The notes below the pieces were generated by a model that was given only the letters and a program-made list of their open reading frames with translations, searched no databases and had not been told where the DNA came from. 62,282 nucleotides of DNA from a virus (Duplodnaviria > Caudoviricetes), in IMG/VR virus record IMGVR_UViG_3300006930_000010, positions 1-62,282 of that record; one strand, 5' to 3'. The translations under genes and the position numbers were made by a program. Of this stretch, positions 6,810-62,282 are shown piece by piece (the first letter of the stretch is position 1; every line of letters starts with the position of its first letter).

Positions 6810-7078
6810 ACCCTGCCGTCGCCCGAGCTGCCTTCGGAATCGACACAACGCGCTCAACTAAATTGACGGGGAGAAAATTCAAGGTCCAGGCTCCGACTTG
6901 TTGGAAAGAGTTTAATCTATCGTCCGGCGAAGCTGAATCCGGGCGGTCGAGCTCTGAATACACTTTAGATGGCTAAAGCAACTAAAGCCCTATAAAACGA
7001 CCGGCGCGTGCTGCCGTTCGAGTTTCGTGCCGTAAATGCTACAACTGGTACAACCCCTGGGAGCCCAACGTCGAACAA

Positions 7079-13236: not shown

Positions 13237-14199
13237 ATGAAGATTATAAAAGCACAGGCACAGTTGTTAGAACAGCGGACTAGATTAGGATTAGTTGAAG
13301 CTTGCGGTCGTATCTGTTACAAATCAGAAGATCGGATTGGACCAGGGACGGCAGCTAAATTTGTTAGTGGCCTTATAAAAGCACAACACGATGCTATGAT
13401 TGAACATGCCACGTATACGATACACGTTCCAATAGACGATATTCGTACGGAGGATCTCACACATGGATCATTCTTAGTGTATGACGTTAGTGATACATCA
13501 GATTCAGTCATCGTATCAGGAAATGTTAGAGCCTGGAGAAACTACTTCAAGTATTGTATCACCTGGGGGCTTGGATGTGAATTCCTTTTAGATGCGCTAT
13601 GCACAGAAGATGTAGAGGCGTACTCAGTCTTCTTTGGTGATTTATTCCCTGACTATATACCACTCGATGATGTTGATGAGGATCTGAGAAATACATTTGT
13701 TATGGACGAAGACCAAGTCAAGGCTCACTTCTATAATGACTCAGAAGCACGCAAGCGTCACATATTCAGAACAATTATGATGAGAACCGACCGAGGAGTT
13801 ACTCACGAACTCGTACGACATAGACCCGCTAGCTTCGCTCAAGAGTCAACTCGCTACTGTAATTACAGCGGACATATGGAATTCATCCTACCATCGTTCT
13901 GGGATGTACAAGCAGAGGGTATTGACTGTGACGAACGAGCCAAAAGACAAGCTTGTTTTGAAACTTGGTATGCAGCTGTATCTGATGCAAATGAGAGCTA
14001 TAAAACTCTTATTGCGAGGGGAGCAAAACCACAGGAAGCTCGATCAGTCCTACCGAACTCATTGAAGACTGATATTGTAGTTACAGCTAGTATGGAGGAG
14101 TGGGATCATATTATTGAGCTAAGAACAGCTCCTTCAGCGCATCCACAGATTCAAGATGTTATTAATATGAGCAAGGAGCTACTATATGGACAAGCTTGA
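13237..14199 (+). CDS. thyX: FAD-dependent thymidylate synthase
   Basis: THELVRHRPASFAQESTRY motif; ARSVLPN; AHPQI. Confidence 0.95.
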   Translation: MKIIKAQAQLLEQRTRLGLVEACGRICYKSEDRIGPGTAAKFVSGLIKAQHDAMIEHATYTIHVPIDDIRTEDLTHGSFLVYDVSDTSDSVIVSGNVRAWRNYFKYCITWGLGCEFLLDALCTEDVEAYSVFFGDLFPDYIPLDDVDEDLRNTFVMDEDQVKAHFYNDSEARKRHIFRTIMMRTDRGVTHELVRHRPASFAQESTRYCNYSGHMEFILPSFWDVQAEGIDCDERAKRQACFETWYAAVSDANESYKTLIARGAKPQEARSVLPNSLKTDIVVTASMEEWDHIIELRTAPSAHPQIQDVINMSKELLYGQA

Positions 14200-15118
14200 A
14201 TTAAAAGCACTTGAGGTTGGAGCTACCGTAAGAGGTGAGCTAGCTGTTACTAAAGCAGAGAAGAAGACTGCACGAAATGGTGCATACGCGATGTTAACAC
14301 TAACAGATGGTGAATTATCGATTGTTGGCAAACGTTGGCAATATGATGATGAACTACCAAAGGTTGGTGAGGTTCTATTTATCATTGCAACAGTCGATGA
14401 GTATCGAGGAACCAAAGGAGTTAACATATCACGATGGAGAGCTGGAGAACTACCAGCTGAAGAGTTCACAGTCAAGGGACCCGTTGATATCAAAGTGTTA
14501 CGAGAACAACTAGTGGACACAATTGAACTTATTCAGGATGGGACGTATAAGGCGGTCGTAACCGAGCTGTTTAGACTTTACACCAACAAATGGTACACTC
14601 AACCAGCTGCTATGGGAGTACATCACAACTATGTAGGAGGACTACTTCAGCATACAATGGAAGTTGTAACGATTGCGATGGCACAGGCTGTTGCTTTAGA
14701 AGCTACATCAGGTATCCTGGTAGACATGAACTTATTGATTGCTGGAGCGCTCCTACACGATATTGGTAAAGTATATACATATGAGTTTCAAGGAGCTGCG
14801 ATAGAGATGACGACTGAGGGTAAATTGTTGGAGCATATTACAATAGGAACTCATATGATACTCCGTTATGATACTGACAACTCCTGTGCAGCGCATAATC
14901 GTAAGGTGCATAAGTTAGCACATTGTGTAGCTGCTCATCATGGTAATCTAGAATGGGGAAGTCCAATACTAGCAGTGATGCCAGAGGCAATGATGATTCA
15001 TTATGCAGATCAGATTAGTGCCAAGAGTGCTATGATGAATACTGCCCGAAAGCAGACTACTAATGAGTGGACTGATAAACAGTACCAGTTGGGTGTGAGT
15101 ATCTATAATGGAGCCTGA
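14186..15118 (+). CDS. YhaM-like OB-fold/HD 3'-5' exonuclease
   Basis: PAAMGVHHNYVGGLLQHT, LLHDIGK, HHG, ADQISA. Confidence 0.85.
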   Translation: MDKLELKALEVGATVRGELAVTKAEKKTARNGAYAMLTLTDGELSIVGKRWQYDDELPKVGEVLFIIATVDEYRGTKGVNISRWRAGELPAEEFTVKGPVDIKVLREQLVDTIELIQDGTYKAVVTELFRLYTNKWYTQPAAMGVHHNYVGGLLQHTMEVVTIAMAQAVALEATSGILVDMNLLIAGALLHDIGKVYTYEFQGAAIEMTTEGKLLEHITIGTHMILRYDTDNSCAAHNRKVHKLAHCVAAHHGNLEWGSPILAVMPEAMMIHYADQISAKSAMMNTARKQTTNEWTDKQYQLGVSIYNGA

Positions 15119-20024: not shown

Positions 20025-20483
20025 ATGAACGTTACTGCAACAAAGGAGTTCACTTGGGATTGTGCCCATATGTTATCAGGGCATGAGGGGCTGTGCAAGA
20101 ATCTGCACGGTCATACATATAAATTAGAAGTTACGGTAGCTCGAGATAGAGGAGACTTGCAACCACTAGGACCTGCTGAGGGCATGGTGATAGACTTCAA
20201 AGAGCTTAAGGAGGTAGTAGTTCATGGGATTGTAAATCCACTAGATCATGCTACTATTATTTTTGGTCTTTCACAGGACCCCTTCGAGCGAGCCTTAGTA
20301 CAGTTGCTGCTAGAGCACGATAAGAAGATTGTGATCTTAGACTATCGACCAACAGCAGAGAATATGGTCAAGGAGTTCTTTCGCCTAATGCAATTTGAGC
20401 TTGCGGAAAAACAAGCAATGTACCATGTGGTGAAGATGAGATTATATGAGACACCAACTAGTTATGCAGAAGTCACTGAGTAG
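20025..20483 (+). CDS. queD: 6-carboxy-5,6,7,8-tetrahydropterin synthase
   Basis: CAH...CKNLHGHTY, GMVIDF, LDH, PTAEN, ETPTS. Confidence 0.92.
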   Translation: MNVTATKEFTWDCAHMLSGHEGLCKNLHGHTYKLEVTVARDRGDLQPLGPAEGMVIDFKELKEVVVHGIVNPLDHATIIFGLSQDPFERALVQLLLEHDKKIVILDYRPTAENMVKEFFRLMQFELAEKQAMYHVVKMRLYETPTSYAEVTE

Positions 20484-20688
20484 CATACTAGATTTAACAG
20501 TCCGAGAGCTATTACAGCAGAATCAGTGTGTATATATCAATGAAGAGGGACATGGAACCGGTCAACTATTCTTGGATGGTTCCAGAGTGACTAAGTTAGT
20601 TGAAGTACATATTGATGCGGCTACAGACACGTTTACAGCAGTGAAGCTGCAAGTAACAACAAAAACGAAGACGGAGGAAGTAATATGA
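20446..20688 (+). CDS. hypothetical protein
   Basis: fills the gap between queD and queE. Confidence 0.5.
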   Translation: MRHQLVMQKSLSSILDLTVRELLQQNQCVYINEEGHGTGQLFLDGSRVTKLVEVHIDAATDTFTAVKLQVTTKTKTEEVI

Positions 20689-21275
20689 CCTATCCGGTAA
20701 TGGAAGTCTTTGGATCTATCCAAGGAGAAGGAGCAATGATGGGTATGCCCGTCAATTTCATACGTCTAGCTGGATGTAATCTAGCATGTGAGTGGTGTGA
20801 CACAAAGGAATCATGGAACGCTACAGCTGATGATATGTCAGTTGAGGATATTGTAGCATTATGCAACTATCCAATTGTAGTTATCACTGGTGGAGAACCA
20901 TGCATTCATGACCTAACTGAATTACGAGAGGCTCTACAGGCTGAAGAAAAGCTAGTTTGTATTGAAACAAATGGTACACTTCCAACTGGTGAGGGTTTCG
21001 ACTGGGTTGTGTGCTCACCTAAACCACCTGAGTATTTAATACATGGTCAGTGTTGGTTTAACGAGTTGAAGTATGTTGTCGATGAAGACTTTAATGTCGA
21101 CTGTATTCCAGAAGAGCAAAAGAAAACCTGCGGATCTGTGTGGTTACAACCTTGTGATTATGGAGACGATAAGGATAAGACACAAAAGTCAATGCAACGT
21201 GCTATGGATTTGGTTCTTACTGCTGGTTATTTACGAATGGGTGTGCAGCTGCATAAGTTGCTCGGAGTTAAATAA
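20685..21275 (+). CDS. queE: 7-carboxy-7-deazaguanine synthase (radical SAM)
   Basis: SIQGEG, GCNLACEWCDT, TGGEP, IETNG, QLHK. Confidence 0.93.
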   Translation: MTYPVMEVFGSIQGEGAMMGMPVNFIRLAGCNLACEWCDTKESWNATADDMSVEDIVALCNYPIVVITGGEPCIHDLTELREALQAEEKLVCIETNGTLPTGEGFDWVVCSPKPPEYLIHGQCWFNELKYVVDEDFNVDCIPEEQKKTCGSVWLQPCDYGDDKDKTQKSMQRAMDLVLTAGYLRMGVQLHKLLGVK

Positions 21276-21277
21276 GT

Positions 21278-21517
21278 ATGAAGGCAAGTAAGGCACAAAA
21301 AGTACAACAGATGGAAACTTGGTTAATCGGTCGCGATATACAGTTTAAGAGTTTACAGAATGGACACATACAAATATTCGATCCAAGAACACAGGAGCTT
21401 AAATATCAGATGTGGGTTACCACTGAGAAGTTAAAAGAGCATAATCCAGGTGGAGAAGAAAAGGTGTGGATCGGACTTGCCGCAATACAGAACAAACTGA
21501 GGAGAGAGTATGAATAG
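21278..21517 (+). CDS. hypothetical protein
   Basis: ORF inside que operon. Confidence 0.6.
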   Translation: MKASKAQKVQQMETWLIGRDIQFKSLQNGHIQIFDPRTQELKYQMWVTTEKLKEHNPGGEEKVWIGLAAIQNKLRREYE

Positions 21518-22112
21518 CAAAAAGAAGAGACGACTGATGGAGGATGAGGTGGTTGGCGGACGAGCCAACCTCGTGTACGAGATATTGAAGACCATTCCGA
21601 AAGAGGACAGAGATCGTGCTGGTTTAGGAGACACACCTCTTCGAGTAGGATCTATGTATGACGAACTGTTTAGCGGATACCTACAGGACCCGAAAGAGAT
21701 TCTCGAGGACGCTATGTTTGTTGATGAAGGAAAAAAGAATGTTGTGTTAGTTAAAGATATACCATTCTATAGTACCTGTGAGCATCATATGATGCCATTC
21801 TTTGGAACTGTTACGATTGCCTATATTCCACAAGATGGTCGAATTGTTGGACTAAGTAAGTTAGCTCGACTAGTTGATGTGTTTGCCAGACGACTGCAAG
21901 TACAAGAACGTATTGGACAGCAGATTATGGATACGCTCAAAGAAGTAATGAATCCATTCGGTGCTGCTGTTATTATCAAAGCAAGACACACTTGTATGGA
22001 AGCTCGTGGAGTTAATAAAGTTGGAGCATATACGGTTACATCTACTCTGGATGGAGTGTTCTTTCTGGACGACAAAGCTCGTGATGAGCTATTCCAGTTA
22101 ATGCAGATATGA
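21510..22112 (+). CDS. folE: GTP cyclohydrolase I
   Basis: TPLRV, CEHHMMPF, GLSKLAR, RRLQVQER, HTCMEARG. Confidence 0.95.
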   Translation: MNSKKKRRLMEDEVVGGRANLVYEILKTIPKEDRDRAGLGDTPLRVGSMYDELFSGYLQDPKEILEDAMFVDEGKKNVVLVKDIPFYSTCEHHMMPFFGTVTIAYIPQDGRIVGLSKLARLVDVFARRLQVQERIGQQIMDTLKEVMNPFGAAVIIKARHTCMEARGVNKVGAYTVTSTLDGVFFLDDKARDELFQLMQI

Positions 22113-22462: not shown

Positions 22463-23104
22463 ATGATTAATATAACAGATTATACAACACAAGCACTGAT
22501 GACAGTGAAAGATCATACATCAAAAGAGATGGCGATCGCTGACTGGGCCTTAGGATTAGGTGGTGAAACTGGAGAGGTTATCGAACTACTATCCTCTGGT
22601 GAACCTAATAAGATGGAATTAGCTAAGGAGCTAGGTGATATCCTATGGTACACGATCGCACTAGCAAATGAAGTAAATATAAACTTCCCATCTAATGCGT
22701 TTGAGGAATTAGATATCTTTGTGAATCGAAGTCATTGTACCACCTGTTTGACGGATACTAATCCCAGACAAACCGCCGTGTTGTCCATTATGACGAACAC
22801 GTGTGCAGCTCAGGAAAAAATGAAACATGCCATCATGCACAAAGAAGGATATGAAGGTAACAGCATTGAGGGAAAACTCAGTAATATTTTAGCAGGTATT
22901 GCGACAGTAGCCAAGCACTCTGGATTTACCTTATATAATGTAGCTGAACTCAATGCCGCAAAACTGGCCCATCGTTACAACGTAAAGAATGGAGGTCAGT
23001 ATTCAGTTGCGGCTAGTGCTGATAGACATGCGACTGAATCTAAGTTTGAAGATACAGCAGAGTTTAAGGCACTGTATCAAGCTATCACAGGCCTGGTATG
23101 CTAA
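22463..23104 (+). CDS. MazG-like NTP pyrophosphohydrolase
   Basis: LGLGGETGEVIE...KELGDILWY; N..KLAHRY. Confidence 0.8.
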   Translation: MINITDYTTQALMTVKDHTSKEMAIADWALGLGGETGEVIELLSSGEPNKMELAKELGDILWYTIALANEVNINFPSNAFEELDIFVNRSHCTTCLTDTNPRQTAVLSIMTNTCAAQEKMKHAIMHKEGYEGNSIEGKLSNILAGIATVAKHSGFTLYNVAELNAAKLAHRYNVKNGGQYSVAASADRHATESKFEDTAEFKALYQAITGLVC

Positions 23105-23625
23105 AGATCATTGTAGAGGGTATTGATAATGTAGGTAAGAGTACTATTGCTGGTCGTTTGGCTAAGCATTACCGCTTACCTTTATATCACGCAGAACGAC
23201 TAGATCGTGATCATATGATGCGAATTGTCACAGATGATATTATCAAGTGTGGACTGATGGACAAGGGCATTATCTTTGATCGATACTACACATCGGACAT
23301 TGTATATGAACCCCTGATGAAACATCAACCGTCACCGTTAGCTGAGCATATGGATGTTCTCTTGTCTAGATTGGACGAGATGGAATTCATTTATATCACC
23401 CTAGTGTGTACTCCAGCAGTAACGATTCAACGTTATGAGGAGTTGGGTGATGAGCTACAGAGTTTGAATACTATATTAGCTGCCGCTGATGGATATAAAA
23501 AATTGCATCGACTGATGAGCTGTAATAAGATTCTATTTGACGTATCCGAGCGGGATGTAGATTCAAATGTACGTATCTTAATTGAACTTATTGATCAACT
23601 GAAAACAGAAAGAGGTATAGAATGA
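23098..23625 (+). CDS. dNMP (thymidylate-like) kinase
   Basis: IIVEGIDNVGKST P-loop, FDRYYTSDIVY. Confidence 0.8.
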   Translation: MLKIIVEGIDNVGKSTIAGRLAKHYRLPLYHAERLDRDHMMRIVTDDIIKCGLMDKGIIFDRYYTSDIVYEPLMKHQPSPLAEHMDVLLSRLDEMEFIYITLVCTPAVTIQRYEELGDELQSLNTILAAADGYKKLHRLMSCNKILFDVSERDVDSNVRILIELIDQLKTERGIE

Positions 23626-24475: not shown

Positions 24476-26932
24476 ATGATTAGAAATGAAATGGGGAGAT
24501 TAGAAATGTCTCCATTACCTCCCGTGAAGAAAGCAAAGATCGTGATTATCGGTGAGTTTCCAAATGCTACCGAAATTAGAGAGGGACAGTACTTCATCAG
24601 TGATGGAGCAGATGTTTTACGGAAAACGTTAAGTCAATGTGGAATCTTGATTGAAGACTGCTATTTTACTGTAGCTTGTCCTTATTTAATGAGTAAGAAG
24701 AATAAAGTAATTCCACCAGAAAGATATCAGAGAGAACGTAATCGGCTACTACAGGAAATTAAAGATAGTGGAGCTACCCTAGTTATGCCTTTGGGTGCAT
24801 TTACAACTTGTGTTCTACTTAACAAGAAGGCACTACCAATTACTAGAGTATTGGGTAACCAATTAGATATAGCGGAATTACCTGGGGTATCAATTATACC
24901 TCAATATCATCCAGCTGTGTTGATGCACAATCCTGGTCAGTATAAGGTATTTCAGAATGTTATTAACACAGTAGCACAAGCTTACCTAGGACAGACATTA
25001 GATGCTGGAATCACTCAATGGTCATACTGCGAGTCTAGAGAAGAACTGAAGCAGCTGATTGAGGATGTACAGAAGCGACCATGGGTATCTGCCGATATTG
25101 AGACCACTCCAATTGGACATACGCCTGTACTTATATGGAATCTAGGAATACAGATCGCAAAGAATGTATCTAAGGTAGTGACGAGAGAAGCTATGGTGTT
25201 CCATCCAGACCTAATTAGACAATTATTCAGCCTTCCCACCTTGTGGGTTTGGCATCATGGTAAGTATGATACAACAGTATGGCATAATGCAGGATTTACT
25301 GAGGCCAGACTAGATCATGACACAATGTATCAACACTATTGCCTCAATGAAACAAATGGTACTCATAGCTTGGGTAAGTGTTCTACGGTATATCTTGGAG
25401 CTGATGAATATAAGAGTGAGATGAACTCACAGTTCAAATTCATTACGACTGAAGAAGAGTATTATAAACACAAAGACGCGTTATGTGCTCGTGTGGCAAT
25501 AGATGCCGACTACACAGGTCAGCTATTTGAAGTATTCAAACCTATGATTGAGAACGAACCTGATTTCGTAAAGCTCTACAATAAGATATTGATGCCAGCT
25601 GCCAACTTTCTACGCAAAGTAGAAATGCGAGGTATGAAGATCGATAGAGAGTATCTATTGAGTCGAGTACCATATTATGAGTCTGAAATCGAAGAGATGA
25701 CAACCGCGATCCAGGATGCAGCTTCTACGTTTTGGAATCAAGAGGCCTATCGAGAACAAACTGGAGCTAAGACCGCATCCGATGTATTTAAACCTACCAG
25801 TGTCAAGCAACTAGCTTGGTTGATCTATGATCGACTCAAGCTTAAACCCAAGTTACGAGGGGCTCCAAAAAGAGGTACGGGTGAGGAGGTACTTGAGTCT
25901 ATCGAGAACCCACCAGAGTTCATATTGCGTATTTTAGACCTTAGAAAGATCAAGAAGGAGTTTGCGACTTATGTTATGAGCTATCTCAAGTGTGCTGATA
26001 CTGATGACATTGTGCATCCGACATTCAACTTACATATTACCGCAACAGGACGACTGAGTTGTGTTGAGCCTAATGTACAGAATGTACCAAGTGGTAAGGC
26101 AGAAGTACGAGACTCTTTTGTTCCTAGAGGACCTGGTCGAGTATTGATGGAGGTGGATTATTCTGGAGCTGAGTTACGAGTTCTAGCTTATCTATCTAAC
26201 GACAAGAAGCTTACAGAGGCACTTGTTAATGGTGACCTACATAGTGAGGTTGCTGTAAGTATCTTTGGTGATGCATACACAAATGGTACTTCTCAAGAAA
26301 TGAAGAACCTGCGAGGAAAAGCTAAGACTGTAAACTTTGGTATTGCATATGGTCGAGGAGCTGGAGATCTATCGAACACATTTGATGTGACGAAGGAAGA
26401 AGCTCAACGCTGGATTGATACTTGGGCTCTTATGTATACAGACGCCTGGGCTTATCTACAATCATGTGAGGATGCTGTACGTCGAGGTGAAACATTAACA
26501 ACTCTGTTTGGACGTCATCGACGATTTGGTTTGATTCATCAAGGGAATATTAAGTCACTGTCAAACGAGGCTAAGAACTTCCGAGTTCAGAGTATCTCAT
26601 CAGACAATACACTACTGGCAGCTATGGAAGCAGATTCAACACTCGAGTACACATACGACGCATACATTATTAATTTAATCCATGACTCTGTGTTAATTGA
26701 TTGTCCTGCCGATCCAGCTACAGTGAAAGCGATCGCATCCTATATGATGAAGGTGATGGTGGAAACGCCTATTAAAGAATATAATTGTACAGTCCCATTC
26801 CACTCAGATGTTGATATCGGAGCTCGTTGGGGTTCTCTAGCATCCTACGATGTCGACACAGAAACAGTAAACTACAAGAAAGAGGAGTTCAGCTATTCAG
26901 ACTGGATTCAATCAAAAGGTGTGTCCTTCTAG
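24476..26932 (+). CDS. polA: family A DNA polymerase with N-terminal UDG-like domain and 3'-5' exonuclease
   Basis: GEFPN...HPA UDG-like; DIET exo; ATGRLS, DYSGAELR, KTVNFGIAYG, IHDS. Confidence 0.93.
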   Translation: MIRNEMGRLEMSPLPPVKKAKIVIIGEFPNATEIREGQYFISDGADVLRKTLSQCGILIEDCYFTVACPYLMSKKNKVIPPERYQRERNRLLQEIKDSGATLVMPLGAFTTCVLLNKKALPITRVLGNQLDIAELPGVSIIPQYHPAVLMHNPGQYKVFQNVINTVAQAYLGQTLDAGITQWSYCESREELKQLIEDVQKRPWVSADIETTPIGHTPVLIWNLGIQIAKNVSKVVTREAMVFHPDLIRQLFSLPTLWVWHHGKYDTTVWHNAGFTEARLDHDTMYQHYCLNETNGTHSLGKCSTVYLGADEYKSEMNSQFKFITTEEEYYKHKDALCARVAIDADYTGQLFEVFKPMIENEPDFVKLYNKILMPAANFLRKVEMRGMKIDREYLLSRVPYYESEIEEMTTAIQDAASTFWNQEAYREQTGAKTASDVFKPTSVKQLAWLIYDRLKLKPKLRGAPKRGTGEEVLESIENPPEFILRILDLRKIKKEFATYVMSYLKCADTDDIVHPTFNLHITATGRLSCVEPNVQNVPSGKAEVRDSFVPRGPGRVLMEVDYSGAELRVLAYLSNDKKLTEALVNGDLHSEVAVSIFGDAYTNGTSQEMKNLRGKAKTVNFGIAYGRGAGDLSNTFDVTKEEAQRWIDTWALMYTDAWAYLQSCEDAVRRGETLTTLFGRHRRFGLIHQGNIKSLSNEAKNFRVQSISSDNTLLAAMEADSTLEYTYDAYIINLIHDSVLIDCPADPATVKAIASYMMKVMVETPIKEYNCTVPFHSDVDIGARWGSLASYDVDTETVNYKKEEFSYSDWIQSKGVSF

Positions 26933-26971: not shown

Positions 26972-28747
26972 ATGTTAAGCAGCAAGACGTTGGTCGAGGA
27001 TTACGTACGAGGACATGACTGGAGAGTCAAAGAAAATGCTAGTACCCCATTTAGTTATGGGGCACTAGGGAAGTACATCTTAAGTGAAGTACAAAAAGAT
27101 TATTGGTTGCGTGAGGTGTACACTCCAAACATTGTAGACGCCTACCGTGATGGATCATTGCACATTCATGATCTAGGTGGATTAACCATCTACTGTTGTG
27201 GTTACTCACTAAAGTTAATACTATTGTGGGGAGTTAAGGGAGTAGGTAATATACCTACGTCGGCACCAGCAAAACACTTTGCAGCCGTAATTAACCAGTT
27301 AGTGAATCTAACTTCTGTTTTTCAGAACGAGATTATGGGAGCTGTAGCCTTTAGTTCTGTCGATACTTTACTAGCACCATTCATTAAGGAGGATGAATTA
27401 ACTTACGCAGAGGTACGACAAAATGTTCAAAACTTTGTGTTCAGTATCAACAGTAATAGCAGAGCTGGGGCTGAGCCAGCATTCAGTAATATAACGTTGG
27501 ATCTAACTCCCCCAGCCGATCTACTTAATGAGAAGGTTATCGTTGGTGGGAAAATGTTAGATTATACCTACAAGGAATGCCAACGAGAAATGGATATGTT
27601 TAATAAAGCATTCTACGAAGTCATGATCGAAGGTGATTTCGACGAAGTACCATTTGCGTATCCAATTCCAACATACAACATACACAAACGGTTTGACTGG
27701 GATAACAAAAACAACGAACTCCTATGGGAGATGACAGGTAAGTATGGAACACCATATTTCGCCAACTTCGGACCTCATAGTGATATGGACCCAGCGGATG
27801 CGAGATCTATGTGTTGTAGATTGAGACTAGACAAACGAGAACTACTAAGACGTGGTGGTGGTTTATTTGGTGCTGGAGATAGTACAGGCTCGATCGGTGT
27901 GGTTACACTTGATCTACCTAGATTTGGTTACTGTGCAAAGAGCAAGCAACAATTCTTTGGTGACTTAGAGTACTTCATGGATATAGCAAGAGACTCGTTA
28001 GAGATCAAGCGAACCTATCTTGAGGATGAGATCTTAGGTAAGGACCTACTACCAGCATTTAGTACGTATGTTGGGACTCTGCGGAGCCACTTCAGTACCA
28101 TTGGTTATGTGGGTATGAATGAAATGTGCTTGAACCTATTGGGGTATGACATCGTAGATCCAAGAGGTAAGGAGTTCAGTCTCGAAGTCTTAGAATTCAT
28201 GAGAGAGAAGTTACGAGAGTATCAAGAGCAGACAGGTAATCTATACAACCTAGAGGCCACTCCGGCTGAGAGTACTTGCTATCGATTGGCCTTAAAGGAT
28301 CGTAAGATGTTCCCAGGCATCATTACTCAGGGAACTGAGGAAGCTCCATACTACACTAATAGTTGTCATATGCCTGCATCAAGTATGCATACGATACAGC
28401 AGATAACCGAACATCAGGAAGAGCTACAAGCCTTGCATACTGGAGGGACGGTTATCCATTATTTCCTAGATGGACCTATCCCTGCAGCGGCAGCCAAGAA
28501 AATAGTGCAAACGGTTATTGCACAGTCAGCAACCCCCTATATTAGCTTGTCACCGGTAAATTGCTTCTGCCCAGAACATGGTATGTTAGCTGCTACCTAT
28601 GATGAGTGCCCGCACTGTGGAGTTCGAACTGAGAAGTATCAAAGAATTACTGGGTACCGAAGAAACGTAGATTTGTTCAATCCCGGTAAGGCTTCAGAGT
28701 TTAAAGACAGAGTTCAGATGAAAGTTTTGAAAGATGATAACATTTAA
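26972..28747 (+). CDS. nrdD: class III anaerobic ribonucleotide reductase (no ATP cone)
   Basis: HIHDL, MCCRL, EATPAES, YYTNS, CxxH...CPHC, RITGY glycyl-radical motif. Confidence 0.92.
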   Translation: MLSSKTLVEDYVRGHDWRVKENASTPFSYGALGKYILSEVQKDYWLREVYTPNIVDAYRDGSLHIHDLGGLTIYCCGYSLKLILLWGVKGVGNIPTSAPAKHFAAVINQLVNLTSVFQNEIMGAVAFSSVDTLLAPFIKEDELTYAEVRQNVQNFVFSINSNSRAGAEPAFSNITLDLTPPADLLNEKVIVGGKMLDYTYKECQREMDMFNKAFYEVMIEGDFDEVPFAYPIPTYNIHKRFDWDNKNNELLWEMTGKYGTPYFANFGPHSDMDPADARSMCCRLRLDKRELLRRGGGLFGAGDSTGSIGVVTLDLPRFGYCAKSKQQFFGDLEYFMDIARDSLEIKRTYLEDEILGKDLLPAFSTYVGTLRSHFSTIGYVGMNEMCLNLLGYDIVDPRGKEFSLEVLEFMREKLREYQEQTGNLYNLEATPAESTCYRLALKDRKMFPGIITQGTEEAPYYTNSCHMPASSMHTIQQITEHQEELQALHTGGTVIHYFLDGPIPAAAAKKIVQTVIAQSATPYISLSPVNCFCPEHGMLAATYDECPHCGVRTEKYQRITGYRRNVDLFNPGKASEFKDRVQMKVLKDDNI

Positions 28748-58178: not shown

Positions 58179-59028
58179 CTATCACCTCAGCTTCTACAAT
58201 CTCAACTTCTGCCTCAGGCTCGATTAGTCCCAACTTGTTCATAACGTTTAATACCTGCGACAGTCTTGTCTTGTCTTCTTCTAGCTTCCCAGTTACTAGC
58301 TGAGGAGCTTCTCCAGATCCTCCACTAACGGCACCCACATTGTTCTGAATATTCAGAATTTGTCGTGGAGCACCTCTGCCTTCCATAGAAGCCATACCAG
58401 TGGAGGCTCTTTCTAGCTTTACAGCCACGTCTAACATTTGCATTGCAACTTTAGGTGTCAGTAAATCTTCGTGTTCGAGGAGATATTTAGAACTGATTCG
58501 GTACAACTGTTCTGCTGTAGTAGCATGTCTATGTTCTATTTCAGCTCGTCTGAGTTCTAATTGTTCTTGTCTTTCCTGCTCTACGTAATTATCATAGGCT
58601 GTGACTCTTGCCTGCCAATGATAAGCCTGTCGGATAATCTCGACATGCTTGACTGCACTACCGACTTCCGCAGCGAGCTTAAATACTGCTCGTGATTCCT
58701 TCGTTGTGCGCATATTACGATAACGTTTAAACAGTCCATAGAACTCTATGGGTTCTCCATCCATGTGTTCCCAGATCGGGATTCCTTCGATGGTGGGCAG
58801 ACCCTCCAGATAACTTATCGGAAGGACTGCCCCCTCGGGAGGATTGTCTAATAGGTCATCTATGGGGGTGCGGAAGCCCGTCGCTAACAGAGCTTGAGGA
58901 TTGACCAATGACGTTGGACGTCCATATGTATCCAAAGGTTGCGCGTTCTGTAATTGTCCAACATATCTTTTCAGTGTGGACATCATATCGACATAAGGTT
59001 GATCCCATTTCGCTAATTCTGTTGCCAT
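58159..59028 (-). CDS. hypothetical protein, candidate terminase small subunit
   Basis: GAGGAG RBS before MATEL; upstream of TerL; FKRYRNM...WQARVTAYD. Confidence 0.55.
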   Translation of the reverse strand: MATELAKWDQPYVDMMSTLKRYVGQLQNAQPLDTYGRPTSLVNPQALLATGFRTPIDDLLDNPPEGAVLPISYLEGLPTIEGIPIWEHMDGEPIEFYGLFKRYRNMRTTKESRAVFKLAAEVGSAVKHVEIIRQAYHWQARVTAYDNYVEQERQEQLELRRAEIEHRHATTAEQLYRISSKYLLEHEDLLTPKVAMQMLDVAVKLERASTGMASMEGRGAPRQILNIQNNVGAVSGGSGEAPQLVTGKLEEDKTRLSQVLNVMNKLGLIEPEAEVEIVEAEVIDDGSQH

Positions 59029-59063
59029 TGTTGATTTCTCCTCTCCCAAGATCCTATATTAAC

Positions 59064-59092
59064 ATTATCCTATATTCGTCGAAATAAGTCAA
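59064..59092 (-). promoter_or_regulatory. promoter for structural operon
   Basis: TTGACT-17-GATAAT on - strand. Confidence 0.6.
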
Positions 59093-59532
59093 CGATTATC
59101 CCAATTATTTTTATTATCTCTACGCGTGCCGGCGACGCTATCTATGCACGGTACAGGCACCTTCGATCCTAGTTGCCCAAAGAAACCTCGAGTGAGGTCG
59201 ACCTACGGCCTACCTCCCTGAGTACCATTTGTTGAGGGCCCACTGGCGTAGCTAGCTTCCGGCGGCTGTGTCTGGGACCTATGATCCCAACAGTCCATGG
59301 ACATTTGTACATGGTATTAGACTGCGACCGCGCAGTTTATTTCTCACGACCGCGGGAGCGGGTGCAAAGCTATCTTCCTGGTCTAGCGTTAGCCTCATAT
59401 GCTGCGCATATTCGGAATGGGTGCAAAGCTATCAGCTTGTCTCGGCTGACCTCATGCGTTTCACGCATTCGGGTGGGATCACTGAGATGCGGTATGTTAT
59501 GACGGGAGAGTGGGAAAGCAACTTACTGCACC

Positions 59533-59582
59533 ACTTTATTAGTTTAAAGTGGTTTTGCTTTATTAGTTTAATGTGGTAAAGT
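59533..59582. repeat. two copies of 26-bp quasi-palindrome (left boundary of island)
   Basis: ACTTTATTAGTTTAAAGTGGTTTTGC, GCTTTATTAGTTTAATGTGGTAAAGT. Confidence 0.75.
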
Positions 59583-59791
59583 ATTTATATTAATTTAGTA
59601 TGATTGATTAGATAGTAGTTTAGTATGAATTAATTGATAGTTGTTTAGTATGTTTTAATTTATATTAATTTAGTATGATTAATATTATATTAGTTTGATA
59701 TGTGATATAGTATAGTAGTATAGTATGATATAATATATATAGTATAGTAGTATGGTATATAGTATAGTATATAGATATGTTATATATGATA

Positions 59792-59870
59792 GGGGTATAT
59801 AGGGGGGGTATATAGGGTATATATGTGGGGGGTATATAGGGGGGTATATAGATGGGTGTATATAGGGGGG
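59792..59870 (+). repeat. G-run/TATATA repeat, potential G-quadruplex
   Basis: seven G3-G7 runs separated by TATATA-like linkers. Confidence 0.8.
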
Positions 59871-59891
59871 AAAATAAAGTTAAAATAATAG

Positions 59892-59920
59892 TTGATTTAT
59901 AGTAGTAGTTAATGTATAAT
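59892..59920 (+). promoter_or_regulatory. C-free sigma-A-type promoter P1
   Basis: TTGATT-17-TATAAT. Confidence 0.8.
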
Positions 59921-59953
59921 ATAATTAAGAAATAAATAAATGAGAGGTTTGAA

Positions 59954-60199
59954 ATGAAGTTTAATAATTTTAAAGATGTTGAGAAGTATTTAGGATATGA
60001 GTTAGATTATGAGTATGATTTAGATGAAGTTGTTGGTGGTAATGATTATTATGTATATGAAGATGGAGAGTTTGAAGATATGATAATGGTTGTAAATGAT
60101 TGTTATTATTGGGTGGTAATAAGAGATGATGAAGTTAGATTTGTGTTAGAGGATGATGAGATTGAAAGAAAGATAATAGAGGATATATTGGGATTATAA
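59954..60199 (+). CDS. acidic early protein (no A/P/T/Q/H)
   Basis: GAGG RBS, own promoter, paralog of 61121-61378. Confidence 0.85.
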   Translation: MKFNNFKDVEKYLGYELDYEYDLDEVVGGNDYYVYEDGEFEDMIMVVNDCYYWVVIRDDEVRFVLEDDEIERKIIEDILGL

Positions 60200-60243
60200 G
60201 ATTAGGGTGGGTGGGTGGGAATAATAAATAATTAAAATAGTAG

Positions 60244-60272
60244 TTGATATATAGTAGTATTTGTAGTATAAT
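60244..60272 (+). promoter_or_regulatory. C-free promoter P2
   Basis: TTGATA-17-TATAAT. Confidence 0.8.
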
Positions 60273-60306
60273 ATAATTAAGAAATAAATAAATGGAGGTT
60301 TTAGAA

Positions 60307-60696
60307 ATGAAGTTTAAGAATGATGTAGTAAATGTAGAGTTTGATTTGGTAGAGTTGTTTGTGAAGAATTTGAATAATGAGAAGAGTAAAGTTGTAAGAT
60401 GTAAGAGTAAGAGTGAAGTTTTTAGAGTGTTGTATGATTTGGGAATGGATGTAAGTGAGATTAGTAGAGAAGGAGGGTGTCATTTTAGTTTTGTGTATGG
60501 AGTAGTGAGTAAAGGTTGTAAGATGAGAGAGAAAAAGAGTGGTAGTAAGAGTGATGTGATTAGAAAGATGGTATTGGAAGGAAAGAGTTGTGGTGAGATT
60601 AGTAAAGAGTTGAATAGTAATTATAGTTTTGTGTTTAGTGTTGTTAAGAAGTATAAGAATAGTGATGAGTATAAGAAAGTAGAAAAAGTGATTTAA
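60307..60696 (+). CDS. tandem HTH-repeat DNA-binding protein
   Basis: GGAGG RBS; two SKS..(F/I)R.....G....EIS.E....(F/Y)SFV repeats. Confidence 0.85.
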   Translation: MKFKNDVVNVEFDLVELFVKNLNNEKSKVVRCKSKSEVFRVLYDLGMDVSEISREGGCHFSFVYGVVSKGCKMREKKSGSKSDVIRKMVLEGKSCGEISKELNSNYSFVFSVVKKYKNSDEYKKVEKVI

Positions 60697-60706
60697 TAGA
60701 AGATAG

Positions 60707-60746
60707 AAAATAATTATTATGTAGAGATATGTAATAATTATTTTTT
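60707..60746 (+). terminator. C-free hairpin terminator
   Basis: 17-bp stem with 2 G-U pairs, GAGA loop, U tract. Confidence 0.7.
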
Positions 60747-60756
60747 AATTTAATTG

Positions 60757-60785
60757 TTGTTTTTTATTGGTGTTTATGTTATAAT
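60757..60785 (+). promoter_or_regulatory. C-free promoter P3
   Basis: TTGTTT-17-TATAAT with TG extended -10. Confidence 0.7.
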
Positions 60786-60819
60786 ATAATTAATAAATAA
60801 ATTATAGGAGGTTATGGTT

Positions 60820-60984
60820 ATGGATGTTAATAAGTTATTGGTGTTATTGGATGAAGATGTAAATGTGGATGATGTGTTGTTAGGATTGGATGATAATGAA
60901 AAATATTGTGTGTTAAATTTGATGTTGGTGTTTGATAAGTTAGATGGTAAGTTTGAGTTAATATTTAATAGTATTGATAAGTAA
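60820..60984 (+). CDS. small acidic protein (not in ORF track)
   Basis: AGGAGG RBS; MDVNKLLVLLDEDVNVDDVLLGLDDNEKYCVLNLMLVFDKLDGKFELIFNSIDK. Confidence 0.75.
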   Translation: MDVNKLLVLLDEDVNVDDVLLGLDDNEKYCVLNLMLVFDKLDGKFELIFNSIDK

Positions 60985-60996
60985 TAAGTAATAGTT

Positions 60997-61050
60997 ATAA
61001 ATAAAGATTAATTAATAGTTAGGAATAATTATTAATTAATTTTTATTTAT
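60997..61050 (+). terminator. C-free hairpin terminator
   Basis: 25-bp stem with 2 G-U pairs, GGAA loop. Confidence 0.7.
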
Positions 61051-61057
61051 TTAATAG

Positions 61058-61086
61058 TTGATTTATAGTATGAGTTGTGGTATAAT
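61058..61086 (+). promoter_or_regulatory. C-free promoter P4
   Basis: TTGATT-17-TATAAT with TG extended -10. Confidence 0.8.
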
Positions 61087-61120
61087 ATAATTAAGAAGTA
61101 AATAAATAGGAGGTTTAGAG

Positions 61121-61378
61121 ATGGAGTTTTTTAGTTTAGATGAGTATTTGAGTTTTGTGGAATTAGATGGTGAAGTAAGTGATGAGTTAAGAAAGAAGTG
61201 GTTAGATAGAATAAATGGGAGGAAAGTGTATATAAATGTAGATGGTGATGTTGAGAATGTGATAGTAGTATTAGATGATAATGAGTATTATTGGGGAATA
61301 GAGAGTAAGAATGATGTAAGATTTGTTGAGATTGAGAAAGAGTTGATTGATGAGTGGAAAGAGAATGATTTAATATAA
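61121..61378 (+). CDS. acidic early protein (no A/P/T/Q/H)
   Basis: AGGAGG RBS; paralog of 59954-60199. Confidence 0.85.
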   Translation: MEFFSLDEYLSFVELDGEVSDELRKKWLDRINGRKVYINVDGDVENVIVVLDDNEYYWGIESKNDVRFVEIEKELIDEWKENDLI

Positions 61379-61404
61379 ATAATTAAATTTTTATTAAATA
61401 GTTG

Positions 61405-61433
61405 TTGTGTTTTAATAGGAATTGTAGTATAAT
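61405..61433 (+). promoter_or_regulatory. C-free promoter P5
   Basis: TTGTGT-17-TATAAT. Confidence 0.65.
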
Positions 61434-61463
61434 AAGTATATAGAAAGATATGAGGTGAAAGAA

Positions 61464-61646
61464 ATGAATGATGTGATTAGAAAGTTGTTTGAAGATGATT
61501 TGGAAGAAAGTGGTTTGAGTTTTGAAGAATATGTTGAAGAAGGAAATATGGATTTGAGTTTTATGAATATTGTGAGAGATGGAATTGATGAAGAAGTTGA
61601 AGATGAAGTTGTTGTGAAAGTTTGGAATGAGTTTAAGTTAAGATAA
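61464..61646 (+). CDS. small highly acidic protein
   Basis: GAGGTG RBS before ATG 61464; D/E-rich. Confidence 0.8.
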   Translation: MNDVIRKLFEDDLEESGLSFEEYVEEGNMDLSFMNIVRDGIDEEVEDEVVVKVWNEFKLR

Positions 61647-61669
61647 ATAGTTAAATATGAATTGATATG

Positions 61670-61717
61670 AATAAGAATTAATTAATAGTTAGAAATAATT
61701 ATTAATTAATTTTTATT
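61670..61717 (+). terminator. C-free hairpin terminator
   Basis: 22-bp stem with 2 G-U pairs, GAAA loop; near copy of 60997-61050. Confidence 0.7.
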
Positions 61718-61862
61718 TGTTGTTAGGAATAATTATTAATTAGGATGAGTTGGGTAGTTAGGAATAAGTTTTAATTAAGAATTGTTATTAGTTAGGAATT
61801 AAATGAATTTTAAATTGATTTAATTATTTGTTAGGAATGATTAGGAATTAAGAATGATTGTT

Positions 61863-62073
61863 ACTTTAGTAGTTTAAAGTGGTAAAGTGGAGTGGGTCAC
61901 TTTACTAGTTTAAAGTGATAAAGTTAACTAGGTTAACTTTAGTAGTTTAACGTGGTAAAGTGTTTGGGTCTATATTAGTATATTATGATATAAGGATTAC
62001 CCTATGGAACTTTACCACTTTAACGTGGCAAAGTGCGACTGGGTCCTACTTTACCAGTTTAACGTGCTAAAGT
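61863..62073. repeat. five copies of 26-bp quasi-palindrome (right boundary of island)
   Basis: starts 61863, 61899, 61936, 62009, 62048; idealised palindrome ACTTTACCACTTTAAAGTGGTAAAGT. Confidence 0.85.
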
Positions 62074-62129
62074 AGAAGCTCGGTCCTAGGGACGGCACTT
62101 CGTGCCCCTGAATAAATATAAATACACTG

Positions 62130-62158
62130 TTGACTTTCTCTTTAAGACGTAGTATAAT
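62130..62158 (+). promoter_or_regulatory. sigma-A promoter
   Basis: TTGACT-17-TATAAT. Confidence 0.75.
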
Positions 62159-62193
62159 AAGAGTATCAAATAAAGAAAGAGAGTGTGAGTCAA

Positions 62194-62282
62194 ATGAACA
62201 CATTGTTGATTAACAAAATTAAGAAGTTGTACAAAGAAAAAGTGAAAGTTCAAGAGTTCGTAGCATCGTTAGATGATGTAGA
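62194..62282 (+). CDS. partial ORF running off the window
   Basis: MNTLLINKIKKLYKEKVKVQEFVASLDDV after promoter. Confidence 0.55.
   Translation, partial: MNTLLINKIKKLYKEKVKVQEFVASLDDV

Follow-up and report, generated by a model that had tools for sequence, protein, structure and literature searches.

Why would a phage write a group of adjoining genes with three of the four nucleotides, and why would it keep a single cytosine for one histidine codon? The question is raised by the right end of the window (the whole stretch of 62,282 bp analysed here, an entire virus record with a completeness score of 95%), where the plus strand of 59559-61863 contains only one C, at 60481, in 2,305 nt. Base counts for this island are A 859, C 1, G 575 and T 870, the plus strand being C-free from 59559 to 60480 and again from 60482 to 61863, and elsewhere in the whole window no base-lacking run of 150 nt or more was found. 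The genome has approximately 42% G+C, the island DNA 25% with a GC skew of +0.99, and one C in 2,305 nt of such a genome cannot be attributed to chance. The five open reading frames (ORFs) of the island comprise 409 codons, among which C occurs only in CAT at 60481-60483, codon 59 of the ORF at 60307-60696. The initial annotation had rightly placed the only C of the island in the first position of this His codon. The whole cassette of ORF1-5, including promoters, untranslated regions and terminators, is written with three nucleotides on the coding strand. The features of the locus are the following:

59533-59583, no strand assigned: left-edge pair of 26-bp near-palindromes, ACTTTA..AGTTTAA.GTGGTAAAGT, the second of which contains the C nearest to the island on this side (59558)
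59559-61863, plus strand: C-free island with its single C; five small ORFs with a separate promoter and Shine-Dalgarno sequence for each
59954-60199, plus strand: island ORF1, 81 aa, pI 4.05, matching neither Pfam nor PHROG
60244-60272, plus strand: predicted sigma-70-type promoter, TTGATA, 17 nt, TATAAT (11/12), one of five homologous island promoters
60294-60298, plus strand: Shine-Dalgarno sequence GGAGG, 8 nt before the ATG
60307-60696, plus strand: coding sequence, 129 aa, pI 9.3, ATG at 60307 and TAA at 60694-60696; beta domain (aa 2-31) and two three-helix helix-turn-helix (HTH) units
60406-60507, plus strand: HTH repeat 1 (aa 34-67), helices 35-45, 49-56 and 60-70
60481-60483, plus strand: CAT encoding His59, with the sole C of the island, directly before recognition helix 60-70
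60544-60645, plus strand: HTH repeat 2 (aa 80-113), helices 81-90, 95-102 and 106-117
60704-60747, plus strand: terminator-like hairpin of A/T pairs only, 16-nt arms with 94% complementarity, then a T run
60820-60984, plus strand: island ORF3, 54 aa, pI 4.05, no family match
61121-61378, plus strand: island ORF4, 85 aa, pI 4.13, with a YYW..DVRFV stretch common to ORF1
61464-61646, plus strand: island ORF5, 60 aa, pI 4.05, no family match above cut-off
61863-62075, no strand assigned: right-edge group of five copies of the same 26-bp near-palindrome, the first of which contains the C that follows the island (61864)

The HTH protein is the only basic island product, the other four having pI values of 4.05-4.13, and a database search for homologs of ORF4 returned ORF4 itself as the sole match. 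Although each gene has a separate promoter, an alignment of the five showed them to be homologous; a further promoter-like match (10/12) was located at 59695-59724, and the next promoter past the island, of the same class, contains C, as does its gene. The 2 + 5 flanking repeats are spaced by 24-73 nt, and the C content of the right-edge copies was, in order, 1, 2, 2, 6 and 5. In the predicted RNA fold the hairpin at 60704-60747 forms a 20-bp stem, and the mRNA was no more stably folded than shuffled sequences (z = -1.2). No tRNA genes were found in the window, and a single sub-threshold Rfam match lay outside the island. G/C-containing palindromes of 4, 6 or 8 bp were absent from the island, whereas the rest of the genome contained 2,135 and 679 in two counts, from whose density about 83 and 26 would be predicted for the island. 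A/T-only palindromes and C-free asymmetric sites were still present. Genome-wide palindrome avoidance was excluded, the median observed/expected ratios outside the island being normal at 0.93 and 0.92.

That this composition is an artefact (chemical C-to-T conversion, chimeric assembly or a miscall at 60481) we consider extremely improbable. The record is a metagenome assembly, and the two runs containing the whole stretch (X1 and X2, of equal depth and length) may be its source and are therefore not independent; no RNA run was listed as containing the stretch. Against an artefact, however, contigs from another assembler (Logan, 65,921 nt, depth 56) matched 59000-62282 with 0 differences, and a relative from another study with 85-95% identity carried 21 island substitutions, none of them to C (60481 lies outside the X3 pieces listed). 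A relative is without ORF3-5 and retains the HTH gene, with a joint from 60699 to 61666. Chemical conversion would moreover yield stop codons and other amino acids, whereas in the 25% G+C DNA of the island all five ORFs are intact and preceded by promoters and ribosome-binding sites. A one-off C-to-T hypermutation was ruled out by the replacements in the protein core, four out of five of which are no products of a C-to-T change. Two homologs from other assemblies (P0002 and P0003, with 94% and 61% identity) kept the His and had no other C-requiring residue. The C at 60481 is not a sequencing error: the second assembler called it at 56x, and these two homologs keep the residue.

C depletion of this gene also recurs in two other phages (L007 and G001), which together with the second assembler and the C-free relative bears out the earlier claim that C is selected against and not lost by artefact. 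Among 20 gene copies for which DNA was available, C made up at most 1.2% in three and 8-30% in the rest, and paralogs within one genome had 1.2% as against 28-30% C. The depleted state was reached in phages of 37%, 42% and 53% G+C. In L007 and G001 the depleted patch is the HTH gene alone (500-700 nt), its flanking repeats contain C, and depletion extends as far as a terminator hairpin of the ordinary G/C kind. Relative to terS, the depleted gene is directed away in the phage studied here and toward it in the other two. A conserved T7-like geometry, in which promoters at the leading end would face inward, was rejected because this orientation differs among the phages. Each of the three phages has clusters of similar repeats beside its depleted gene, and such clusters occur nowhere else in the two long records; as the repeat pattern was derived from these phages, its presence there is by construction, and only the clustering and the absence elsewhere count. 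The DNA of 59400-62282 had no match in the phage collection.

An AlphaFold2 model of the HTH protein (mean pLDDT 84.9, and 87-91 over the HTH blocks) predicted two three-helix units, so that the three-helix bundle with its recognition helix would be present twice, residues 59 and 105 each directly preceding a third helix. The two 34-aa repeats described initially are present at aa 34-67 and aa 80-113, as are the repeats quoted for the protein of 10986-11822. All Pfam HTH cut-offs were missed, the best matches being HTH_28 (PF13518, 17.1 bits as against 25), HTH_29 (PF13551, 15.7 as against 28.1) and HTH_23 (PF13384, 14.4 as against 24.6), each covering aa 93-124 only. PHROG matches were weak (phrog_12823, E 0.0012; phrog_26445, E 0.0036), and a protein atlas search returned only generic HTH clusters with scores of 0.87-0.90. 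The best PDB match by sequence was 2lvs_A (profile E 4.6e-6, both HTH units aligned), and the same structure ranked first in Foldseek (probability 0.96), followed by IstA, SETMAR and the bipartite DNA-binding domain of Tc3, all with weak E values of 0.02-0.12. 2LVS, named by its depositors as a CRISPR repeat binding protein, is thus the closest solved structure by sequence and fold, being likewise small with two three-helix HTH units and a linker. It differs in having 24% identity and a TM-score of about 0.3, the latter because the two units sit differently, in its lack of the N-terminal beta domain and in its biological setting. Tandem HTH units are also found in Tc1/mariner and IS21 transposases (Tc3 1U78, SETMAR 7S03, Sleeping Beauty PAI 6URS/2M8E, IstA 8Q4D), in whose bipartite domains a monomer reads one long asymmetric site; these matches were weak but consistent between sequence and fold. 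Unlike the transposases, the island protein is free-standing with 129 aa, has no catalytic domain and falls below the Pfam cut-offs. Judged by its model, there would be nothing unusual about the protein as a DNA binder.

The protein belongs to a large phage family, often with several copies per genome. Of 95 candidates, 91 were homologs at E <= 0.01 (range 6e-13 to 2e-65), and a profile search found 771 representatives at E <= 0.001, of which 238 were at <= 1e-10. The alignment of the island protein with its 91 homologs contains 30 invariant or nearly invariant columns, and the island protein shows full-length homology, the motif SKS..R..Y..G....EI and xHYSFVYGV / NSNYSFVFSV in its two repeats; many homologs carry precomputed HTH_23, HTH_28, HTH_29 and HTH_7 labels. 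A distant relative is encoded in the same window:

10986-11822, plus strand: distant paralog of normal composition, 278 aa, its N-terminus weakly matching SAP/Rho_N and followed by three HTH repeats

Pairwise BLASTP between the two proteins gave weak matches (E 0.003 and 0.009), and the homology that had been proposed was established by profile alignment of the two families (hhalign, 92 versus 51 sequences, probability 98.6%, E 1.2e-15, 99 columns), in which island repeats 1 and 2 pair with repeats 2 and 3 of the longer protein. The island protein has two repeats, no SAP/Rho_N-like head and a conserved core different from that of the three-repeat family, and on these alignments it is a relative and not a member of that family. 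Three protein clusters (P0001, P0008 and P0022) share the same longest contig of 66,032 nt, and an exact second match of 44 nt lies about 1.4 kb beyond the window end in the 65,921-nt contig and continues into the C-terminus of P0022. Going by these matches, the phage carries at least two more predicted copies of normal composition just past the window end, in addition to 10986-11822. Neither P0008 nor the shared 44-nt stretch matched viral contigs. A search for related loci with the family alignment found only three viral, four metagenome and one genome locus, and one of viral contigs with the island protein alone found none. In a quickly searched tree of the 92 members, poorly resolved with 50 of 89 branches open, C-free members stood at three or more places, though they may still share a single origin.

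The column of His59 is strongly conserved, with 85 H, 6 N and 1 V in the 92 members, which agrees with the idea that C was kept where the protein needs it; the counterpart in repeat 2, Asn105, is N in 90 of 92. The Asn codon is one base change from the His codon. In five of the 92 members exactly one residue requires C, and in all five this residue is His59. The share of C-requiring residues over 225 proteins was bimodal (16 at 0-4%, 1 at 4-6%, 208 at >= 6%), and 16 proteins had at most 3% (15 of the 225 plus the island protein), four of them with none. These 16 have, at the place of His59, 7 H, 3 C, 2 V, 2 R, 1 N and 1 K, and in the C-depleted copies the residue is R (AGA) for L007 and N (AAT) for L054. 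A strict need for His is therefore contradicted by the nine of 16 reduced-alphabet members that do without it, and by the nearness of Asn; the sequences suggest that His is preferred at position 59 but not indispensable. C-free coding of P0002, P0003, P0078 and P0090 is probable from their amino acids alone.

That the protein had been rewritten in a reduced alphabet, with Ala and Thr replaced, was upheld for five changes specific to this copy (A53S, T56G, T94S, P95C and A99S). The motifs YSFVYGV / YSFVFSV, however, which had been read as rewritten from YATVYAAT, are the consensus of the whole subfamily and occur also in members with 6-39% P/T/A/H/Q. Since only one of the 30 invariant or nearly invariant columns of the two-HTH subfamily requires C, compared with 10 of 46 in the three-repeat family (Fisher p 0.04), the idea is partly rescued at family level. 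Pairs of reduced-alphabet members differed at 46-55 positions with no C-requiring residue among them, whereas two normal members had 31 C-requiring residues among 55 differences; no P/T/A/Q was used by homologs with 49-55 differing aligned positions. We are highly confident, for all four points jointly, that 60307-60696 is a real gene, that its product has a two-HTH fold, that C is selected against and that the His is conserved.

Our overall account, to which we assign a probability of roughly 60%, is that of an early two-HTH gene in a cassette cleared of C, with a His kept by benefit over cost. The product would be a basic DNA binder with two tandem homeodomain-like HTH units behind a small beta domain, and by analogy with bipartite transposase or CRISPR-repeat-binding domains a monomer may recognise an asymmetric target spanning roughly 20-26 bp. 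Long-lasting selection would have cleared cytosine from the coding (non-template) strand, from signals as well as codons, and the protein would have adjusted to the 15 C-independent amino acids, with Ala going to Ser, Thr to Ser or Gly and Pro to Cys. His59 would cap the first recognition helix at its N-terminus and would have been kept because in this lineage it was worth more than the one C spent on it; the cost of C would therefore be paid per site and not be all-or-none. Other lineages would have become fully C-free at this place by Cys, Val, Arg, Asn or Lys. Aca proteins are anti-CRISPR-associated HTH repressors of phage anti-defence loci, usually with one HTH and dimeric. With about equal chances for and against, the island protein might be an early regulator of this type, which the setting resembles in a conserved small HTH gene beside variable, orphan, acidic, putative early and anti-defence proteins with very strong promoters; an operon-type Aca layout is contradicted by the separate promoter of each island gene. 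The targets of such a putative regulator would be the homologous early promoters, the 26-bp repeats bracketing the island, or both.

For the reason behind the exclusion, our leading guess is a tentative one: the cassette must be expressed first and survive, and would have been rendered proof against defence or termination by offering nothing to host barriers that depend on C or on G/C palindromes. The island contains no G/C palindromes in a genome of otherwise normal density, and the best precedent is restriction of first-entering DNA. For T5, one report describes EcoRI cutting and CRISPR acting only on first-step-transfer DNA, a DNA-binding A2 protein needed to bring in the remaining DNA, and a stop signal made up of a thicket of repeats and palindromes (10.1101/866236). 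The likeness would lie in a short leading pre-early cassette that includes a DNA-binding protein and ends in repeats; five near-palindromes directly follow the island at 61863-62075 and may or may not serve as such a stop region. Base exclusion is not reported for the T5 region. In some podophages restriction-modification motifs matter only in the first-injected region, and in Autographiviridae selection on this variable, anti-defence-rich DNA has removed one Type I motif (PMC12455610). In the island, by contrast, one strand lacks a nucleotide altogether, and with it all G/C-containing palindromes disappear together. Speaking against first entry, the assembly is circular or permuted (the contig start differs between X1 and X2), the depleted gene has the opposite orientation to terS here compared with L007 and G001, whose patches span just 500-700 nt between C-containing repeats, and A/T-only palindromes and C-free asymmetric sites are still found in the island. 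Both complete genomes also carry genes for 7-deazaguanine synthesis, and their DNA may already be protected. Selection on RNA is possible, though on the improbable side: transcripts would have to lack C, the HTH protein being simply needed first, in order to escape Rho, C-dependent endoribonucleases or ddhCTP-like chain terminators, or to be made under CTP scarcity. Rho loads on C-rich, G-poor RNA and needs C-rich rut sites, and the tolerance of one or a few C would fit a need for several C in Rho loading. That Rho limits expression from phage DNA has been described (PMC3526286). Depletion tracks the coding strand regardless of terS orientation, covers 5' untranslated regions and in this phage also the terminators, as A/U-only hairpins, and ends at the ordinary terminators of L007 and G001. 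However, C is absent also from the 130-330 nt that precede the first predicted promoter, DNA that should vary freely unless another promoter lies there (the 10/12 match at 59695-59724), and the C count is stricter than Rho avoidance requires. A man-made counterpart is the G-less cassette used for transcription in vitro, which yields RNA without one of the nucleotides and hence needs no supply of that NTP; it is non-coding and G-less, whereas the island is natural, coding and C-less.

A modified base is an unlikely reason but one for which the window itself encodes candidate genes:

20025-20483: QueD (PF01242, 6e-29)
20685-21275: QueE (QueE-like phrog_2076, 1.3e-40)
21510-22112: FolE (PF01227, 1.7e-64)

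If a 7-deazaguanine derivative replaced G in the virion, the host polymerase could transcribe the initial gene or genes even of fully modified incoming DNA, because the template strand of the cassette has no G except opposite 60481; equally unlikely, the cassette might be indifferent to its modification state. G001, which besides this phage is the one complete genome carrying a C-depleted copy, likewise has QueD and QueE, an association that rests on two genomes; published lists of 7-deazaguanine phages might include relatives. Against this reading, polymerases can read 7-deaza purines, whose Watson-Crick face is intact, neither QueC (PF06508) nor TGT/DpdA (PF01702) matched at E <= 1 in the window, which leaves about 3.6 kb of the genome outside and could let a divergent DpdA escape, and a literature search gave no link of 7-deazaguanine to early transcription. 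Quite unlikely is a mutational cause, in which C would be lost from the exposed non-template strand, spontaneously or through a host ssDNA cytosine deaminase, the C-free sequence being the mutation-proof end state of very strong transcription. The depleted strand is indeed the non-template one of genes with near-consensus promoters, 11 of the 21 changes in the relative are A/G transitions and none is T-to-C, and the phage polymerase has a UDG-like domain. However, four of the five core replacements are to Ser, Gly or Cys, which takes at least two changes, and not to Ile/Met, Leu/Phe or Val; untranscribed upstream DNA is depleted on the same strand only, the next gene and its promoter of the same class hold C, and the literature search found no anti-phage ssDNA cytosine deaminase. 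Least likely among these, in our view, is a replication origin with the repeats as iterons and the HTH protein as initiator, where R-loops or G-quadruplexes, formed by the A/T-rich DNA with its G confined to the non-template strand, would open or prime the origin. The 2 + 5 repeats stand beside 25% G+C DNA of extreme skew, the only two G-quadruplex motifs of the window (59792-59817 and 60205-60219) fall within the island, and in plasmid Rep proteins a two-domain monomer reads one iteron. Yet nothing ties the HTH protein to replication, primase-helicase and polymerase being encoded 7-27 kb away, the cumulative skew has no turn at the island, and an origin does not require the total exclusion of one base.

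Returning to the early cassette cleared of C, it might represent a distinct 'three-letter' class of phage genes, in which a first-expressed cassette with a constant two-HTH regulator has a C-free coding strand across deeply diverged phages; the odds for this appear even to us. Judged from its bimodal amino-acid composition, about 7% of the family may fall into the class. With the same even odds, the class would reflect an unrecognised barrier or requirement that reads C in the non-template strand or RNA, or G in the template. No earlier description of cytosine-free phage regions was found in a literature search that lay outside most subscription journals and supplementary files. What is unusual is not the DNA binder but that its gene, four neighbours and all signals are written with three nucleotides. 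The lone His codon provides a natural titration, which indicates a selective pressure that works site by site and whose strength can be gauged by a single conserved residue, and the island protein is a natural experiment in protein design with an amino-acid alphabet of 15-16 letters. If the cause were found, be it restriction, evasion of Rho or RNases, base modification or deamination, it would give a rule for how phages secure their very first gene expression and a simple compositional key to search metagenomes for leading regions and anti-defence genes. Should the three-letter class hold true, such islands could mark both the barrier and the earliest anti-defence genes that phages bring against it.

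The window record (62,282 bp, completeness score 95%) encodes terminase, capsid, primase-helicase and polymerase genes, and its island at 59559-61863 contains on the + strand one C in 2,305 nt, at 60481. Elsewhere in the window no run of 150 nt or more lacked any one base. The single C is base 1 of CAT, codon 59 of the ORF 60307-60696 (the HTH gene). This His codon was already singled out in the initial annotation; of the 409 codons in the five island ORFs, no other contains C. All five ORFs lie on the + strand, each preceded by its own promoter; these promoters are homologous (GTTGAT.., 17 nt, TATAATATAATTAAGAAATAAAT), and every ORF also has a GGAGG-type site. With a pI of 9.3 the HTH protein is basic; the remaining four island products are small and acidic (pI 4.05-4.13), and no relatives were found for them. 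The island features were as follows:

59558-59757: repeat of 25-nt period, six copies, ..TTTAGTATG.., C-free, upstream of the first island promoter
59783-59870: GGGGGGTATATAG repeats, C-free, upstream of the first island promoter
59792-59817: G-quadruplex motif 1, within G-run repeats before the first promoter
60205-60219: G-quadruplex motif 2, GGGTGGGTGGGTGGG, right after the ORF1 stop, a place where one would expect a terminator hairpin
60307-60696, + strand: HTH ORF, ATG at 60307, stop at 60694-60696, GGAGG 8 nt before the ATG
60704-60747, 60997-61050 and 61670-61717: A/T-only terminator-like hairpins, arms of 16-25 nt, 91-94% complementarity

The two G-quadruplex motifs are the only ones of the window on either strand. 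The A/T-pair hairpins look like a C-free substitute for G/C stems.

A second assembler produced a 65,921-nt contig of depth 56 (sequencing runs X1 and X2) in which 59000-62282 shows 0 differences. Both runs are possibly the source data and resemble a single data set, which makes this a test of the assembly and not of the sample. A relative from another study (run X3) was represented by pieces at 85-95% identity; in the listed pieces, which lie outside 60481, 21 of 21 island substitutions were among A, G and T, and the loose ends within the island were C-free. Two homologs from other source collections, P0002 (94% alignment identity) and P0003 (61%), carry the same His. On these three lines of evidence an artefact or a miscalled C was rejected, as had been argued from the sequence at the outset. 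In the X3 relative only 4 other letters stand between 60699 and 61666, so that ORF3-ORF5 are absent while the HTH gene is kept; accessory island genes therefore vary and the HTH gene is constant.

A word-indexed search yielded 91 homologs of the HTH protein among 95 candidates (E 2e-65 to 6e-13), and a profile search of 1.84 billion representatives found 771 at E <= 0.001, 238 at <= 1e-10 and 53 at <= 1e-30. An AlphaFold2 model from the 92-sequence alignment (mean pLDDT 84.9) showed strands within aa 2-21, then two units of three helices each, 35-45/49-56/60-70 and 81-90/95-102/106-117, with His59 and Asn105 each immediately preceding the third helix of its own unit. The 34-aa repeats first described were found at aa 34-67 and 80-113. 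The top solved match by sequence was 2lvs_A (E 4.6e-6, both units aligned), and the top fold matches were 2lvs ('CRISPR repeat binding protein'), IstA, SETMAR and the Tc3 bipartite DNA-binding domain, with weak E values (0.02-0.12), since the two units can move freely. The island protein fell below every Pfam HTH cut-off. We classify it as a bipartite HTH protein that stands alone and belongs to a phage family without a name, and the ORF is a real gene whose product, judged from alignment and model, is a putative DNA binder.

The initial annotation had proposed that this protein is a relative of the three-repeat protein at 10986-11822, whose quoted repeats were found in that protein. BLASTP between the two was marginal (E 0.003 and 0.009) and both weakly matched phrog_26445. 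Profile alignment (92 vs 51 sequences) established homology at 98.6% hhalign probability, E 1.2e-15 over 99 columns, pairing island repeats 1 and 2 with repeats 2 and 3 of the paralog, so the objection of no profile-level homology does not apply. It had further been claimed that the island repeats were rewritten from those of the paralog. Homologs are mostly of ordinary composition, with a median share of residues requiring C (P/T/A/H/Q) of 13.8%, and the YSFVYGV and YSFVFSV helices also occur in them; the motifs are therefore no local rewriting of YATVYAAT. The contrast held at the family level, where 1 of 30 invariant or nearly invariant columns needs C (His59) vs 10 of 46 in the three-repeat family (Fisher p 0.04). 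By alignment the family core is close to a C-free text in all members. At columns where members of normal composition mostly have a C-requiring residue, the island copy has A53S, T56G, T94S, P95C and A99S, and in the variable N- and C-termini T5N, A125V and E126 (members T or A). Only A125V matches a C-to-T change, which argues that the copy was adjusted by selection, and a single burst of deamination as its origin was rejected.

At position 59, 85 of the 92 alignment rows have H, 6 have N and 1 has V; the repeat 2 equivalent is N in 90. Five rows have exactly one C-requiring residue, and in each it is residue 59; they are the window protein, P0002, P0003, P0078 and P0090. These proteins contain no P/T/A/Q, and any two of them differ at 46-55 aligned positions, except that the window protein and P0002 are close (7 differences). 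Among 225 family proteins, some of which have no C-requiring residue, 15 have a share of <=3%, and their His place, assigned in the second set of proteins by motif pattern and not by alignment, holds H in 6, C in 3, V in 2, R in 2, N in 1 and K in 1. In two other C-depleted gene copies the codon is AGA (Arg, locus L007) and AAT (Asn, locus L054). The claim that C is kept where the protein needs it thus stands for the preference and not for strict need: His59 is strongly preferred and kept here at the cost of one C, yet replaceable. As His is kept in some C-depleted members and replaced in others, the price of C is graded.

Coding-strand C was <=1.2% in 3 of the 20 homologous copies with DNA (window 0.3%, L007 0.8%, L054 1.2%) and 8-30% in the remaining 17. 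L054 lies in G001, a 60,447-bp record of 52.7% G+C whose sole base-depleted patch (60,000 nt scanned), 1065-1575, comprises a promoter and the HTH gene immediately upstream of the terminase gene terS; two G001 paralogs of the depleted gene have 28-30% C. L007 has the same layout in a contig of 37% G+C, and was alone in having a depleted patch among 48 loci around related terminases. The C-requiring share was bimodal over the 225 proteins (16 at 0-4%, 1 at 4-6%, the remainder at >=6%). C-free members appear to fall in at least three places of a quick, poorly resolved tree, and a single origin is possible. Full-text literature, with most subscription journals outside its coverage, held no account of cytosine-free phage regions.

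The 65,921-nt contig spans the whole stretch and carries a second exact 44-nt match to 60613-60656, which encodes NSNYSFVFSVVKKY; therefore about 3.6 kb of the genome, which assembles as a 65.9-kb circle, lies outside the window. The second copy is about 1.4 kb past the window's end in the X1/X2 contigs, and its reading continues into the P0022 C-terminus; this paralog has normal composition. P0001 is identical to the 10986-11822 product, and one 66,032-nt contig is the longest in the clusters of P0001, P0008 and P0022 alike; P0008 and P0022 are not encoded elsewhere in the window. Two copies of normal composition, which share 58% and 52% alignment identity with the island one, seem to lie in the missing 3.6 kb. 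The exact copy hints at gene conversion between paralogs or common C-free ancestry.

Two plus five copies of a 26-bp near-palindrome flank the island, the farther ones richer in C. Using a pattern drawn up from the copies of all three phages themselves, related repeat clusters were found in L007 and G001, where they adjoin the depleted gene; elsewhere in the two long records there were none. On the way from the terS start to the island, 59100-59530 is G+C-rich, with only spurious-looking long ORFs, two copies of GGGTGCAAAGCTATC (59360 and 59419) and no Rfam match; a pac or cos site is conceivable here, as is an RNA. L007 (about 640-800) and L054 (about 3300-3420) likewise have a G+C-rich stretch ahead of their repeats. 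Upstream of the C-depleted gene of G001, L054 3424-3860 has three successive repeat families (5 copies of ..TAGTTTTAATTGGTG.., 4 of GGAATGTTCTGACTTT and 3-4 of GTTCTATTGTTAGTTAAGTGTT) and looks iteron-like. Small + strand ORFs run on from the island across the record ends (1-7000, 62130-62282), and the next promoter (62130-62158) is of the island class with C.

Elsewhere, 20025-22112 encodes clustered QueD (PTPS), a QueE-like radical SAM protein and GTP cyclohydrolase I of the 7-deazaguanine precursor pathway; QueC and TGT/DpdA had no match in the window. ThyX-like (176-aa N-terminal extension), HD-domain, MazG-like pyrophosphatase and dNMP-kinase-like proteins (13237-15118 and 22463-23625) could be there for a second modification of nucleotides or a change in their pool. 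A family A DNA polymerase with N-terminal uracil-DNA-glycosylase-like and 3'-5' exonuclease domains (24476-26932) is followed by an anaerobic ribonucleotide reductase (26972-28747), which suggests an anaerobic host. The family's one genome-collection match (L063 863-1156, a 4.1-kb contig of a MAG titled Candidatus Lithacetigena glycinireducens) and P0154, a three-repeat homolog with the NCBI name of a Syntrophomonadaceae MAG, weakly hint at a Bacillota host.

Selection against C on the coding strand reaches the non-coding parts, with His59 retained and the bipartite HTH protein conserved. The reading we rank first, tentatively (probability about 0.3), is that C is excluded to make a putative first cassette defence-proof. 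A strand without C can hold no G/C-containing palindrome, and the island had none of 4, 6 or 8 bp (about 83 and 26 expected at rest-of-genome density); the rest of the genome showed no palindrome avoidance. Among three-letter codes the C-less one alone retains ATG and GGAGG. There are precedents: PMC12455610 states that R-M motifs count only in the first-injected region, and 10.1101/866236 that in T5 the first-step-transfer DNA alone is open to EcoRI and CRISPR and that a DNA-binding protein and a repeat-rich stop signal are required. Against a defence-proof first cassette, the depleted gene varies in orientation to terS and the G001 and L007 patches are short. A C-less RNA evading Rho, RNases or CTP analogues seems slightly less probable. 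We consider a G-free template strand in a 7-deazaguanine-making phage unlikely, with FolE, QueD and QueE in the window and QueD and QueE in G001 in its favour and the lack of a DpdA or QueC match in the window against it; a deamination hazard is a little more doubtful still, and a replication origin the least likely.

Aca repressors stand beside variable anti-defence genes, and the proposed HTH regulator beside small island genes may be comparable. The HTH protein would bind DNA and regulate the putative early cassette, or might instead target the bracketing repeats. The fold of the protein is of an ordinary kind, whereas a gene cassette naturally coded in three nucleotides, a state that recurs in one gene family, is not.
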